Below, one piece after another: positions 25,190-62,560 of a DNA stretch of 64,000 bases. This DNA is from Eledone cirrhosa (lineage: Eukaryota): contig OZ024745.1 in the NCBI GenBank assembly GCA_964016885.1, positions 9,052,001 through 9,116,000 on the forward strand, read 5' to 3'. Made by a program: the position numbers and the translations under genes. Position 1 is the first letter of the stretch; each line of letters opens with the position of its first letter. The notes under the pieces are model-generated. The model saw only the letters and a program-made list of their open reading frames with translations, was not told where the DNA came from and searched no databases.

Positions 25190-25309
25190 GTTCCGATGAG
25201 CCACTCTGTTTTTTAAATATGTTAATTATTTTCAACTGAACCAGATCAATTATGATATATAGTCATCTGATCCAGAAATATTATATGGAGTAGCGAAACA
25301 ATTGTAAAC
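25190..25309 (+). ncRNA. Type I hammerhead ribozyme, extended stem II, CCGAUGA core
   Basis: GTT-CCGATGA-GCCACTCTGT...ATGGAGTAGC-GAAAC-AATT-GTA-AAC; the stem II domain is 95 nt; located in the PLE 3' UTR. Confidence 0.72.
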
Positions 25310-25605
25310 GGACATTATTATTATTAATATTATTATTATTATTCTCTACATTCCTTACATCAAACTAAAATATGTTGACAATCTTTTAATAATGTCTTCC
25401 TTGTGAAGTTTGTGGTCTTGTTTTGCTTAACTAATGAATATATATGTATATATATATGTATATATATATATATATATACATATATATATATATATATGTA
25501 TATATATATATATACATATATATACATATATATATGTATGTATATATATATATATGCATATATATATATATCCGTGTATATATATATATATATATATATA
25601 TATAT

Positions 25606-25953
25606 GGGATAACAAGTTATCGTTATAGGTAATCCAGTTAAAGGTTTTGAGTGCTCCGTGTCGTGGATAGTTTTAACGTACGGCTTTGTTTGACTCAACA
25701 AGAGGTTTCCATAGTTATGTAGAGAGTTGGCGAGAATTCCTATGCAGGTTATTCTTGGAGTAATAGTAGTGAAAGATTGAAGAATAACATGGTCGGCTGT
25801 ACAAGGGGCTTTATTTCAAGTATTAACAATTGTTTCATTGATCAGGTGAGTCTAGAGGCCGCTAACCACTCGAAGTTGCGTCACTCGACCTTCAATACAA
25901 TATTTACCTCTGATCAAATCCTCAGAATACTAGAGAACTCACATGTGGCATGG
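25606..25953 (-). mobile_element. Solo PLE pLTR fragment between (TA)n tracts
   Basis: Contains an HHR followed by AATAAA on the minus strand (TTTATT at 25810-25815); non-coding. Confidence 0.65.
25819..25931 (-). ncRNA. Type I hammerhead ribozyme, extended stem II
   Basis: Minus strand: AGTATT-CTGAGGA-T TTGATCAG...CTGATCAA T-GAAAC-AATT-GTT-AATACT; 6-bp stem I and an 82-nt stem II domain. Confidence 0.85.
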
Positions 25954-26174
25954 TATATATAGATACAGCGTAGAATCAAAACAATAACATCAATAATAAA
26001 ATATAATGATAAATAGGTAAAGAAGTTACAGATGTAAAAAGTAAAAAAAGTATAAAGATAAAGAAATAAAAAATAAGTATATAAGTACAGAATACGCTAG
26101 TTGATAATAGTGGTGGTGGTGAGTAAGTGTATAAGGATGTGGGGGTGGAGGTAGTACTAACATATATATATATA

Positions 26175-26824
26175 CAGAGTGGCCCCAAAGTCACACAGGG
26201 TTCGCAGCTGTCACCGAGCCACGCACCCAAGTTGTGAAATACTTCTACCAAATTCAGCGGTCAATAATTCAGACCTGAGAGCATATTGGCGACACTATCA
26301 AGTGAGAGATGCTCCTAGTGACAATGCGATTAAGAAATTGGTTAATCGTTTCGAAGAGCAACGAGCAGTAAGTGATCCCTCACGATCTGGGAGGCCTTGC
26401 ACTGTCAGAGCTGATGAGACAAGGGAAGAAGTTCGAGAGAGTGTCGAGGAAAATCCAGGCCCATCGACTGGAAGGCGGTCAAGACAGCTCGCGATTTCAC
26501 GAACTTCGCTGCAAAGGGTTTTCAGAAGCCTTGACCTTTTTCTATACAAGGTGCAACTGGTTCAACAACTGAAGCCCCAAGACTATCAACAGAGGCTCCA
26601 ATATGCTGTCAGAATCCAGGAATTGGCGAGAAATGACTGAAAATTTTCCCTAAATTTGAAAGATGTAATTTTTCATAAGTAATGTAGAGGTGTGACAAGG
26701 ATTGACGAGTGCAAAATAATTTCCATTATGTCCTTTAAGTTGTATCAAAATTTCATACATCAATCTGTACAATTTAGGAAGTTAATAAAAACTAAAACCC
26801 CTATGTGACGTTTGGGCCACCCTG
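26175..26824 (+). mobile_element. Internally deleted Tc1/mariner DNA transposon
   Basis: Imperfect TIRs CAGAGTGGCCCCAAAGTCACACAGGG / CCCTATGTGACGTTTGGGCCACCCTG with TA flanks; the ORF encodes the transposase N-terminal HTH region (RSGRP...SRTSLQRV...YKVQLVQQL) but no catalytic domain. Confidence 0.9.
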
Positions 26825-27261
26825 TATATATATATATCGGTTGACCGCGAATAGATGGCTGTCGTTTATTTATCCATTATTTCTTCATGGGTGCCTTTTA
26901 ATCTTATAGCCTGGTTTTGTTTTTTTGTGTGGTTGATTATGCTAATTGGGAGAGGAAATGGTGTATATATTTTATCAAATGATTCTATGGACATACTTTA
27001 TAGTATATATATATCTATATATATATAATCCTTATCGAGCCCTCTTCGGATTTTAGTCTTCAAATGTACCATTACTATATATATATATATATATATATAT
27101 GTATATATATATATATATATATATATATATATATATATATATATATATATATATATATATATATATATATATATATATATATATATATATATGTGTGTGT
27201 GTGTGTGTGTGTGTGTGTGTGTGTGTGTGTGTGTGTGTGTGTGTGTGTGTGTATACATATA

Positions 27262-59353: not shown

Positions 59354-59413
59354 TTATACACACATATAGGTATTTTATACACACACACACACACACACAT
59401 ATATATATATAAT

Positions 59414-59952
59414 TCAATACATAAACAGAGAAAGCCTTAAGCGATACTCCGACCAATTCCATCTCACTCAACAAACATTAGGATATACTTAAGTATTATC
59501 CCAATTTAGTGTTTGGGGTGCTAACTAATCAGTATTTCGTAGAAAATTGGTTGTATTATTTTATATGAGACATTATTAAATAAATATCTCTTTCCTTCCA
59601 GACGGCCGTTTCGTTATAAGATTTTTACAAATTGGGATAAATAATTTCCAGTTTATGTAGAAACTTGTATATAATCTGTAGTTTTATACACAAGCGGGCT
59701 CTTATAAACTCATCAGTGGATGTCCAAATTAATATCGATATAAGAATTATATCGACATCAATATAATGGTGATGGTCTCCCTCAGCGCTAAGAAGAGAGT
59801 GGTAGATTAAAATCCAGCAGTTCTCCCAAATAAAAATTACACGCTGTCCCCAAAAGGGTAAAGGGAGGTTATCATAAAATAAAACAATATACACGCTGGT
59901 CAATTAAACCTGTTAGGTATAAACCACGTGTATAAGAACTCAATTGGAAATT
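59414..59952 (-). mobile_element. ~540-bp non-coding HHR-bearing element, copy 2
   Basis: Diverged homologue of 58597-59130. Confidence 0.8.
59597..59720 (-). ncRNA. Type I hammerhead ribozyme, extended stem II
   Basis: Minus strand: TCCA-CTGATGA-GTTTATAAG...CTTATAAC-GAAAC-GGCC-GTC-TGGA; 97-nt stem II domain; canonical GUC site. Confidence 0.9.
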
Positions 59953-60304
59953 GAGTGTATATATATATACACACGTTTCGCTATTGATCTGATCAGTTGA
60001 AGGTACGATCTATATCAATCTAGCTATATACATGTGTATATATATATATATATATATATATATATATATATATATATATATATATATATATATATATATA
60101 TATATATATATATATATATATATATAAATATATATATAAATATATATATATATATATATATATATATATATATATATATATATATATATATATATATATA
60201 TATATATATATATATATATATATAAATATATATATAAATATATATATATATATATATATATATATATATATATATATATATATATATATATATATATATA
60301 TATA

Positions 60305-61541
60305 CCTTAATAACCAAAAACTAAAAAAACTACGCAAAGATATAAGAAAACTACTACTCGAAATAGGACTAACTATAACATATGAATACAACCTTAAAGT
60401 AGTTAACTTCCTGGATGTCACACTCAATTTAAACTCGGGTTTGATTAAACCGTTTCATAAATTGAATGAAAATCTCAAATACGTAAATGTTGGGTCTAAC
60501 CACCCCATCTCTATAATTAAATCTATCCCTAAAAATATTTCCCTTAGAATCTCGGGTCTATCTTCTAACATACAAGTATTTAAGGAACACGCCGAGTACT
60601 ACGATAACGCCCTTAGTAAAGCAGGCTACCTCAACAAAATAGAGTACATAGATGGGAACAATCAAAACACCCAAAATAAATCCCACATAGGTAGATATAA
60701 TAACACAACACCAAACCACACTTACTACCATAGTATGCACACCAGTAAACCAACAAACAAAACTAATAGAAAGCGATGCAAAGAGTACTTATGGTATAAC
60801 CCCGAATACAATAGTTCCATTAGTACAAATTTACCAGTACTCTTCTTTAAAATAATTAAAAGACATTTTCCCACATCACACAAATACCACAAAATCCTAA
60901 ACCCTACCACTATAAGACTGTCATACTCTACAGCGTTAAACCTTGAACAACACATAAAAAAGATCAATACTAGAAGGTTAAACGAAAACACTAAGAACTT
61001 AAGTACAAAGAACACAAAAAAACCAGTAGACAATACACTACAGAACATAAATAAACCACACCTAAGTTCGTCCGCAATACTACTCCAGAGAAAACCCAAC
61101 GTACACAACTGTAACTGCACCTATCCTGACAACTGCCCCCTCGGCAATAACTGCCTGGAAAAAAATATTATTTATAAGTGTACCATTAAATCCGGAGGCA
61201 ACGAGTGGTATTACGTGGGATCAACGGCAACATCGTTTAAATCTCGATTGTATAGGCATTCTTACTCAATAAAACACCAGAGCCAAAGAAATGTAACAAC
61301 TTTAGCAGAAAAAGCTTGGACGCTCAGGGATAGCGATCAAAAGTTTACCCTAAAATGGGAGAAATTAGCTAAAACCCAAAGCTTTTCCAGGAGCCAAAAT
61401 TTCTGCAAATTGTGTAATCTCGAGATTTATTACATAATCACACACAAGAAGAAACTGCTGAATAACAGAATTGAACGAACATTATTCTGCCGTCACAGAA
61501 CTAAAACCCTTTTTTCCCACTACAAGCCGAATATTACATAA
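60305..61541 (+). CDS. PLE RT C-terminal part + GIY-YIG endonuclease (open frame, 5'-truncated, no native start)
   Basis: ORF-track entry 60441-61541 extends upstream in frame to the (TA)n junction. Confidence 0.75.
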
Positions 61542-62440
61542 AAGAGGGACATCCCCCAACTATATAAACCTTAATCTAGTTAGAAAAATATAAAAACAAT
61601 CTCTTCTCAACATATATTAATAACCTTAAATTACCACACTAATAATGGAAAGATATGCTGATGAGAATAGGTGCAAATATGCGATAATGAATGTGTCTAA
61701 AAACGTCCATAAGTATGTATATATATGTGAAAATGTATATAAATAAGTAAATATATATATATGTTTGATGTGTATAGTTAGATGTAAGTGTATTCATGTA
61801 TTAAAGTGCTTATATATATATATACATATATATATATATATATATATATATATATATATATATATATATATATATATGTATGTATATATGTGTATATAGA
61901 TGTGTATGTATGTGTATGTGTGTACACATGGACTAGAGTATGTATGTATATATGTGTGTGTCTATACGTGTGTATATAAAGATAAGTTGAGTATGAAAAT
62001 GTATACACATGAGCGCGTATGTATGTACATGAATACATGTGTGTATATATATGTGTATGCATGTGTATATATATGTAAGTATGAATATGTGAATTGTGAG
62101 TATATGTATTTTGTAGAGGTGTGCAAATATATGTGTGTGAATGCGTGGGTGAAAGGATACTTACACTTGAAAGAAAAAATTTAAGTCTGAATGTTAATTA
62201 AGTGCAAATACAAAACCAACCACGCATATCTTTACTATCTCTAATCCTTCTATAGATTTAGAAAAATAACCAATAATATATTCTATAAAAAATGTCAAAA
62301 CAACAGATGGGAATCTAATTACTCACTGCCACCAAGAATTCTCACTGCTATCGAAAAACCACTCCTTCAACTATTCTTCTAACAACTTCACCCCTCCCTC
62401 CTAATATTCTCTATAAAAACTAAATAGGTCCTCAGTAATA

Positions 62441-62560
62441 TTATTCTGATGAAATGACAGTAAATAATAACATTGAAATATTGAATGTCTGCATAACTAA
62501 AAGTTTGTAGATAGCAGCTGTTTTAGGTTATGTAACTGTTATAGAAACACGTGTCAATAA
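62441..62560 (+). ncRNA. Type I hammerhead ribozyme, extended stem II
   Basis: TTATT-CTGATGA-A ATGACAGT...ACTGTTAT A-GAAAC-ACGT-GTC-AATAA; 91-nt stem II domain; the 3' strand of stem I overlaps AATAAA. Confidence 0.88.

Follow-up and report, generated by a model that had tools for sequence, protein, structure and literature searches.

We have analyzed seven hammerhead motifs with long stem II arms in a 64,000-nt stretch of the Eledone cirrhosa genome (contig OZ024745.1, referred to here as the window). Sequence and structure comparisons support the view that these long-arm hammerheads are an expanded variant of the dimer-type hammerhead of PLEs. The catalytic core is intact, the motif is found in both pLTRs of an intact element, helices covary, unpaired loop bases are conserved, and arms and ORFs show co-descent. 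The initial annotation had treated the long stem II as a single class; the expanded variant is retained, but the arms represent several architectures, at least four of them unrelated, on a length continuum that includes about 148,000 short-spacer matches.

A pattern scan located all seven motifs where they had been annotated, with box 1 at 25193(+), 25925(-), 46410(-), 58080(+), 58896(-), 59716(-) and 62446(+). In this order, the catalytic boxes are separated by 95, 82, 61, 50, 95, 97 and 91 nt, and the stem III loops are AATT, AATT, AATT, GCGC, GATC, GGCC and ACGT, all seven of which are palindromic. Stem I has 3-6 bp; these values, on recomputation, reproduce the annotated spacers of 50-97 nt, 4-nt palindromes and stem I lengths. 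The core boxes CUGANGA, GAAA and UH are present in each motif, and in the two whose box 1 lies at 25193 and 46410 the U of core position 4 is replaced by C (U4C). The G10.1-C11.1 pair used as a criterion for type I hammerheads is found in only two of the seven window motifs, with G-U in one and a mismatch in four, and it is missing from most families. No long-spacer motif occurred in 900 dinucleotide shuffles (three block sizes, 300 each) of region 22200-64000, as against seven in the real sequence, the comparison that the annotation had proposed for motif frequency. When the palindrome rule was dropped, 6 of the 900 shuffles gave one match. Two motifs with a 30-nt spacer (57806(+) and 55644(-)) and a variant core at 48511(+) had not been annotated.

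The motif at 25190..25309 (+) has a 95-nt arm (25200-25294) and a predicted cut after 25306. It lies in the 3' pLTR of the Hydra element at 23008-24815, and its family comprises 9 distinct copies with a weakly structured arm; shuffled versions of the 25190 arm fold equally well (z 0.05). The 82-nt arm (25918-25837) of the motif at 25819..25931 (-; predicted cut after 25825) contains a bulged A and a G-A-R-U/N-A-G-C internal loop, and relatives of this motif follow Hydra ORFs downstream at a distance of about 830-930 nt. The same internal loop is present in the 61-nt arm (46403-46343) of the motif at 46327..46414 (-; predicted cut after 46331). We rejected this motif as the ribozyme of the ORF at 46539-47556, since it is absent downstream in all 13 other copies of that ORF; four 3' flanks of such copies were examined, and all end in a different, short-stem variant. 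The motif at 58077..58151 (+), with a GCGC loop and a 50-nt arm (58087-58136), aligns with a 57-63-nt group. Three-way junctions are predicted for the 95-nt arm at 58779..58900 (-), inside the repeat 58585-59131, and for the 97-nt arm at 59597..59720 (-), inside the repeat 59399-59952. These two repeats are 79% alike, and the annotated figure of about six insert families is right. Finally, the motif at 62441..62560 (+; 91-nt arm 62453-62543, predicted cut after 62555) is followed directly 3' by AATAAA, and some 45 nt beyond it the element terminates in (TA)n. The arm of this motif folds better than shuffled sequence (z -5.8).

Two ORF matches provide the coding context. A Hydra-type RT-endonuclease ORF at 23008..24815 (+) is 5'-truncated and frameshifted, occupying two frames, and a second ORF at 60309..61541 (+) is a 5'-truncated member of a young Hydra family with 99-100% identical copies, whose full ORF has 772 aa from Met. 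These matches are followed downstream, on the same strand, by the 25190 and 62441 motifs at distances of 398 and 919 nt. The annotation had placed both in the 3' UTRs of coding Hydra-like PLEs; the downstream, same-strand position holds, but both ORFs are truncated and the first is also frameshifted. In the young family with intact ORFs, the long form is the only hammerhead in the unit, and one intact unit (L182) carries it in both pLTRs, 3,631 nt apart. The families located downstream of Hydra ORFs have arms of 47, 81-83, 88-91, 90, 95-98 and 101-105 nt. Those with 79-91-nt arms form one ORF clade (SH-aLRT 99-100) in quick trees, which were built from relatives with no named Hydra references. 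Assignment to the Hydra clade is based on P0001, which carries RWK, DKT, a CxCX5C linker, CxxC and CxH flanking conserved E and N, and GIY-YIG at the C-terminus; Pfam gave no matches in three Hydra ORF pieces. The ends of window copies and of genome copies indicate insertion into (TA)n.

Across the genome, the boxes are 45-124 nt apart in about 38,000 pattern matches, compared to 735 control matches. Spacer lengths form a continuum from 11 to 116 nt, with long forms reaching 126 nt, and lengths stop near 120 nt: the 125-155 nt range gives 1,292 matches versus 416 in the control. At the cleavage position, G17 is at background (213 versus 201 control) and H totals 27,417. The loop is a perfect palindrome in 18 of 25 long motifs in a 1.13-Mb sample; within one family AATT, GATC and GGCC interchange and the loop remains palindromic. 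In three of nine families every base is found at position 7. Most families have A-A, A-C, C-A or U-U at 10.1-11.1, and U4C occurs commonly. Both features could lower ribozyme activity; U-U at 10.1-11.1 is known from natural ribozymes (PMC3088659).

Existing search models overlook these motifs, as the annotation had expected of capped searches. The published PLE descriptor permits a stem II of up to 7 bp and a loop of up to 10 nt, for a maximal spacer of about 26 nt (PMC4209133); with spacers of 45-126 nt, stem II here falls outside the limits of 3-7 bp and a 3-10 nt loop. Among the three long motifs in 57700-60000, Rfam model RF00163 scored only that at 59597..59720, whose 19.5 bits fall short of the cut-off of 34. 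Rfam gave no hammerhead match at 18 further loci. Rfam microRNA matches were dismissed as microsatellite artefacts. The hammerheads adjacent to Hydra ORFs in metagenomes (48 of 78 loci) do not exceed a spacer of 26 nt. Long-spaced matches in a relaxed scan of 29 metagenome loci lie inside ORFs and were taken as chance. Searches with capped descriptors or Rfam thus leave tens of thousands of motifs unrecognized in a single genome, a point of relevance to PLE families described as hammerhead-free, such as those with Naiad half-cores.

Our preferred reading, which we put forward tentatively, is that type I motifs in the terminal repeats of Hydra-clade PLEs, from a group belonging to the host lineage, self-cleave only when paired via stem III, and that the 45-120-nt arm may serve as a family-specific handle for the element's own RT-endonuclease; RT binding is our best guess for the arm. 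The predicted stem III hairpin (+2.4 kcal/mol, with a monomer helix III of only 2 bp) is unstable compared with the 8-bp self-duplex (-6.4 to -14.1 kcal/mol), and for this reason the two motifs of a pLTR-ORF-pLTR transcript, 3.6 kb apart, would pair as a double hammerhead. Unit-length RNA able to circularise would be released. A lone motif would remain uncut, as reverse transcription would require, since the site is followed by the element's 3' end within only about 45-165 nt. The arm would project from a helix in which hammerheads tolerate insertions, its conserved loops would bind protein, and the bound protein may assist folding and cleavage, as reported for Anolis Poseidon (PMC11167929). 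Short-stem families are about four times commoner in the same genome, however, and the arm is therefore dispensable for success.

The structure of the arms bears on a simpler possibility, to which we give some weight while thinking it unlikely: that an ordinary dimer-type PLE hammerhead has had its stem II lengthened by duplication or slippage, leaving a functionless arm. Such tolerated growth would fit the length continuum, the unrelated architectures and the greater abundance of short-stem families. It would also fit the 99-126-nt family, where length grows by repeats of a 10-nt unit, and the weakly structured 94-98-nt arm, in which 2 of 21 pairs show a double change. No pairs emerged when the 84-92-nt families were folded jointly with RNAalifold. 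However, the helices of two arm groups (78-83 nt and 50-63 nt) covary, scoring above all 500 shuffles in both alignments; the pair-shuffle controls take no account of relatedness, and the structures themselves derive from the same sequences. The covariation check set by the annotation gave a positive result in these two alignments, where helices I and II show compensatory changes. For alignment A1, 37 of 500 shuffles had at least as many pairs with a double change as the real data. While adjoining pairs covary, unpaired bases are nearly invariant: in the 78-83-nt group the distal-loop A, U, A and G and the bulged A are kept in 22 of 22 copies, and in the same loop of the 50-63-nt group the bases are kept in 27-31 of 31. 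A model built from the 78-83-nt group detects 82-90-nt families at 27-40 bits, and the end of the length range near 120 nt also argues against unconstrained growth. Model R1 missed the 62446 motif at E 0.05. The shared loop is absent from the 93-97, 94-98, 99-116 and 45-49-nt families; its descriptor matches 1 of 15 (57-59-nt), 0 of 10 (88-92-nt) and 1 of 7 (90-nt) copies, where the loop is otherwise recognized by eye. Compared by eye, the geometry of the loops did not fit the consensus patterns of kink-turn, SECIS, loop E or box C/D, and these readings were rejected.

It is also conceivable, if improbable, that the arm is a protein-free peripheral folding domain which docks against either stem I or the partner ribozyme, offsetting the weak 10.1-11.1 pair. 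Natural hammerheads have contacts between stem I and stem II, often pseudoknots (PMC3088659), and 18 of 31 copies of the 93-97-nt family contain a match of 4-6 nt between the arm and the sequence 5' of stem I. This match, however, lacks compensatory change, its sequence can alternatively form a hairpin that buries box 1, and no pseudoknot match is common to the other eight of nine families. Furthermore, the shared loop lies 13 nt from the core in the 50-63-nt group and 31 nt in the 78-83-nt group, and thus acts like a module that can shift position, not like a fixed stem I contact.

The ends of genomic copies raise the question of whether the motif still cleaves. A new observation is that the majority of copies in one family terminate within the 5' strand of stem I; 5' ends accumulate at stem I rather than at the cut site, and among the first 100 of 1,068 listed copies none starts at the cut site, a result that our preferred reading also draws on. 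Contigs of four runs, whose kind is uncertain, had no joint across the arm; contigs cannot reveal RNA ends, and we count this result neither for nor against any reading. Near-identical pieces occur in two runs from other organisms and are uninformative on other species. The unit to which the 59597 motif belongs is about 770 nt long, partly tandem and apparently non-coding; partial tandems in the 93-97-nt family have a common junction, and no ORF was found within 1.5 kb of its copies. That the motif no longer cleaves but has been retained as an RNA signal for packaging, two-template pairing or reverse transcription would agree with these ends and with copies that span the cut site. It would likewise agree with Poseidon PAc of Anolis, whose core mutants still insert in vitro and for which no RNA-seq ends at the site are reported (PMC11167929). 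We nevertheless regard it as quite unlikely, since the core pattern is kept despite unalignable arms, position 7 is free and no G17 family has been amplified, together the signature that cleavage chemistry should leave. That the arm is a retained spliceosomal intron, excised to restore a short stem II, is extremely doubtful: PLEs retain introns, one of which ends at helix I in Drosophila virilis (PMC4209133), and a GT...AG stretch in the 91-nt arm would on removal leave a short hairpin, but GTRAG...YAG occurs in 0 of 161 copies of nine families, the GT is not kept among relatives, and helices within the arm covary.

The handle reading can be carried further, to a natural 'aptazyme', which we consider unlikely. 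Here the family's own RT would gate hammerhead folding and cleavage via the stem II arm, paired ribozymes would pair two template RNAs, and strand-swapped stem I would stall reverse transcription, leaving head-to-head copies. Head-to-head copies joined inside stem I are observed in the genome; if this reading were true, they would be the genomic footprint of a double hammerhead in vivo. Minimal PLE hammerheads offer little beyond the core to mutate. The many related families with distinct covarying arms, together with the young intact-ORF family, would allow protein recognition or gating to be tested directly by arm deletion and swaps.

Moderate extension of stem II has precedent: arms of about 50 nt are published for two spike-moss PLE-X elements, and the methods of the same paper describe eight Naiad half-cores 35-50 nt apart (PMC8557442). 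Among the closest known systems is the min-HHR of metazoan PLE pLTRs (Cervera and de la Pena 2014, PMC4209133), which is likewise type I, located in both pLTRs, with a short stem I, palindromic stem III, dimer logic and many solo truncated copies in sequence families. It differs in having spacers of at most about 26 nt in its descriptor, compared to 45-120 nt here, where internal loops and three-way junctions are present and G10.1-C11.1 is mostly absent. The Hydra-clade PLE hammerheads of Craig et al. (2021, PMC8557442) share the protein clade, (TA)n insertion and a 3' UTR motif, but all 26 Hydra rows of that source, including Octopus bimaculoides, have spacers of at most 26 nt, and the units are <3 kb rather than at least 3.6 kb. 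Poseidon PAc (Frangieh et al. 2024, PMC11167929) is also a PLE hammerhead, placed directly upstream of two internal RT start sites, with uncut RNA as the template. Its ORF starts inside stem II, and the accessible text mentions no long arm. Protein-assisted cleavage is demonstrated for PAc and only proposed here. The PAc protein-binding motif lies within the first 172 nt of the ORF; such a motif at the ORF start does not single out stem II, a counter-point to the proposed handle. Animal non-LTR retrozymes (PMC7229834; bioRxiv 10.64898/2026.07.22.740005) are non-coding tandem units with a type I hammerhead, and the unit of the 93-97-nt family is likewise partly tandem and apparently non-coding. 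Retrozymes are expressed as circular RNA and have units of about 300 nt, whereas the family described here is known from DNA and has a long branched arm in a unit of about 770 nt. The discontinuous Clec2 hammerhead (PMC6155905) is another natural example with a long insert in one helix; it is a type III, host-gene motif with the insert in helix I, while the motifs analyzed here belong to high-copy retroelements.

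The seven type I hammerhead motifs of the initial annotation, and no others, were recovered when the window was scanned for C[CT]GANGA followed by a spacer of 6-150 nt, GAAAC, a palindrome of 4 nt and GTH; the spacers between their catalytic boxes measure 50-97 nt and stem I has 3-6 bp. When the window outside its satellite was shuffled 900 times with dinucleotides preserved, such a motif never occurred. A looser scan added two 30-nt-spacer motifs with an all-AT palindromic stem III, at 57806 (+) and 55644 (-), both held by an inverted repeat (55540-56196 / 57252-57910) and both members of a class abundant in the genome. 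A variant at 48507-48560 (+) has CAGAAGA, with A at position 4, as box 1 (at 48511); its stem II is short, and its stem III is longer, lacks a palindrome and could let a monomer work. It forms the end of the Hydra family of ORF 46539-47556, as it does at four other genome loci (L383, L385, L389 and L392), and copies of this family are 96-98% identical at the protein level. At 59968-60023 (-) lies a partial motif of the 50-60-nt type that lacks box 1 and gives way to (TA)n precisely where the cut is predicted. Elsewhere, positions 1-22199 are a 22-kb satellite with a 31-nt unit, broken near 3000, 9840 and 22230 by an insertion apparently present three times, while 32989-35240 is an inverted pair, 96% alike, with a GIY-YIG-like C-terminal fragment that gave no match to Hydra protein and near which no hammerhead was seen.

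Genome-wide figures are pattern matches rather than curated copies, taken over the 3.0-Gb assembly that holds the window, probably from an octopod cephalopod to judge by its repeats, with the reversed pattern as control. Spacers of 45-75 nt (AATT loop only) gave 3,386 matches against 12 in the control; the corresponding values were 27,417 against 347 for 76-105 nt, 7,444 against 376 for 106-124 nt and 1,292 against 416 for 125-155 nt. A looser pattern with spacers of 8-38 nt gave 148,270 against 8,144. In 113 10-kb stretches sampled at round coordinates, six neighbour stretches being excluded, 53 motifs combined a perfect 8-nt palindrome with a stem I of at least 4 bp; 18 of these had 45-130-nt spacers, against a mean of 0.05 over 20 shuffles. 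Spacer lengths in the sample form a continuum from 11 to 116 nt, with the long forms towards its upper end. Additional repeat families with hammerhead-like boxes and a non-palindromic stem III were seen at L034:1167-1314, L074, L148, L196, L191 and L037.

The expectation that standard searches miss this variant was borne out: the published PLE hammerhead descriptor permits a spacer of about 26 nt (PMC4209133), and an Rfam search gave one sub-threshold match only. The table in PMC8557442 has 26 Hydra rows, with spacers of at most 26 nt, and also lists, as deviant, two PLE-X motifs of spike-moss whose spacers are close to 50 nt. A strict same-strand motif was present at 48 of the 78 metagenome loci where a Hydra-type ORF occurs, every spacer being 10-25 nt and none 40 nt or more; a relaxed scan of the 29 loci without any motif added five, all short. 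No description of PLE hammerheads with arms this long was found in the literature searched. The long-arm motifs are real, abundant and hidden from standard searches.

The family of ORF 60309-61541 is young: 102 scored matches are 99-100% identical, many in 785-aa open frames, and its protein carries the motifs RWK, DKT, CxCX5C, CxxC and CxH, by which the Hydra clade is defined (PMC8557442, section 11). The only hammerhead of a full unit (L182) is the 88-nt motif, which occurs in both pseudo-LTRs at a distance of 3,631 nt. Hydra ORFs end 390-1,450 nt upstream of motifs with spacers of 47, 81-83, 88-91, 90, 95-98 and 101-105 nt. In quick trees of the C-terminal part of the ORFs, a branch with SH-aLRT 96 has every long-arm family on one side, where one 31-nt family and ten rows that lack an assigned motif (including a single database protein) also fall; the metagenome relatives fall apart from that side, and the 79-91-nt families form one clade (SH-aLRT 99-100). 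The trees are rooted at the midpoint, so a single origin of the long-arm families is no more than possible. No parent ORF was found for the 50 and 57-63-nt families, and the 93-97-nt family is housed in an apparently non-coding unit of ~770 nt, recurring in partial tandems.

The core was surveyed in nine families (161 distinct copies, picked by pattern). The base at the cleavage position, H17, is A, C or U, and in three of the families all four bases occur at position 7. G17, reported to impair minimal hammerheads (PMC3884650), gave 213 matches against 201 in the control, so no G17 family has been amplified. As a counterpoint to selection on the core, however, pair 10.1-11.1 is mismatched in most families and C for U at position 4 is common. 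Stem III palindromes are many and varied, with three different ones within one family; computed stability is +2.4 kcal/mol for the monomer stem III and -6.4 to -14.1 kcal/mol for the self-duplex. This is the dimer design already described for PLE hammerheads (PMC4209133; PMC6765202). Our preferred reading, held at a little under even odds, is a dimer-type hammerhead that would process the paired motifs of tandem transcripts and remain silent as a lone monomer, and whose arm would likely bind the element's own protein.

Covariation, expected of the helices proposed in the initial annotation, is present in two groups by score or pair count, against shuffles that ignore the relatedness of copies. 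In the 78-83-nt group 22 of 29 copies were aligned, after removal of two near-duplicates and of five copies that carried deletions or duplications; 86% of its cells are paired, and its score for covariation exceeded all 500 shuffles. Of its 28 pairs 10 were doubly changed, a count reached in 37 of 500 shuffles. In the 50-63-nt group (31 of 48 copies) both sides changed in 18 of 24 pairs, against 0 of 500 shuffles. Both groups have an internal loop, G-A-R-U / N-A-G-C, with near-invariant unpaired bases, and a bulged A is kept in the 78-83-nt group, whose model detects the 82-90-nt families (27-40 bits) and did not detect the 62446 motif (hammerhead 62441-62560, +). The 93-97-nt arm is predicted to form a three-way junction (6 of 29 pairs doubly changed, 9 copies), the structure of the 94-98-nt arm is weak, and family means of folding z-scores lie between -0.6 and -5.0. 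The arms are thus of several types, with good selection on structure in some and weak in others. Set beside weakly structured and covarying arms alike, tolerated growth of the arm is the foremost alternative, possible if rather unlikely; that the arm is a protein-free folding domain is less likely again. In the 93-97-nt family, bases 5' of stem I at 58889-58910 (-) match an arm segment, which would make either a pseudoknot or a hairpin burying box 1, a possible switch.

Of 1,068 listed copies of the young family, the first 100 include none that starts at the cut site, and 3' ends are found some 45 and 165 nt further downstream; the template was therefore uncut or re-ligated there, as in PAc, the Poseidon PLE of Anolis (PMC11167929). 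In the 115-nt family (L413-L437), a count by eye over the first 100 of 3,074 rows gave 65 that depart from the family sequence at a point up to about 19 nt upstream of box 1, and almost all of these departures fall in the 5' strand of stem I, which is 10 nt long; the remaining 35 run through and none ends between. A script applied to 30 loci placed the ends of 18 at 1-10 nt upstream of box 1 and had 12 continue; the 18 represent 11 independent sites, including 7 head-to-head pairs, and the ending and continuing loci belong to different subfamilies. A second, small cluster of ends in this family lies at ~+70, inside the arm. The young family has a milder excess at stem I, about one third of 100 rows, under a pattern that leaves out most full-length copies. 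Head-to-head junction palindromes are known in PLEs (PMC3846280); a pile-up of ends at stem I was not found in the part of that paper covered. Its cause could be a strand-swapped stem I in the dimer, fold-back of the cDNA, whose product is visible in 2 of 100 rows, or an RNA 5' end at stem I.

AATAAA or ATTAAA follows the cut site at 62556-62561, 46319-46324 (-) and 58156-58161. In six families it occurs within 25 nt downstream in 29/32, 27/29, 9/15, 10/10, 8/9 and 7/7 copies and upstream in 0-1 copies; none was found within 25 nt downstream in three others. Cleavage would separate the ORF from this poly(A) signal. A motif acting as a non-cleaving signal, considered beside the uncut or re-ligated template and the absence of an amplified G17 family, is improbable, and an intron, in an arm with covarying pairs, is highly so.

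A dimer-type hammerhead, the reading we prefer, would resemble known PLE hammerheads in its way of working, whereas the motifs here, from their sequence, fail the stem II definition of that class; the spike-moss PLE-X motifs near 50 nt offer some precedent for a moderate extension of the arm.
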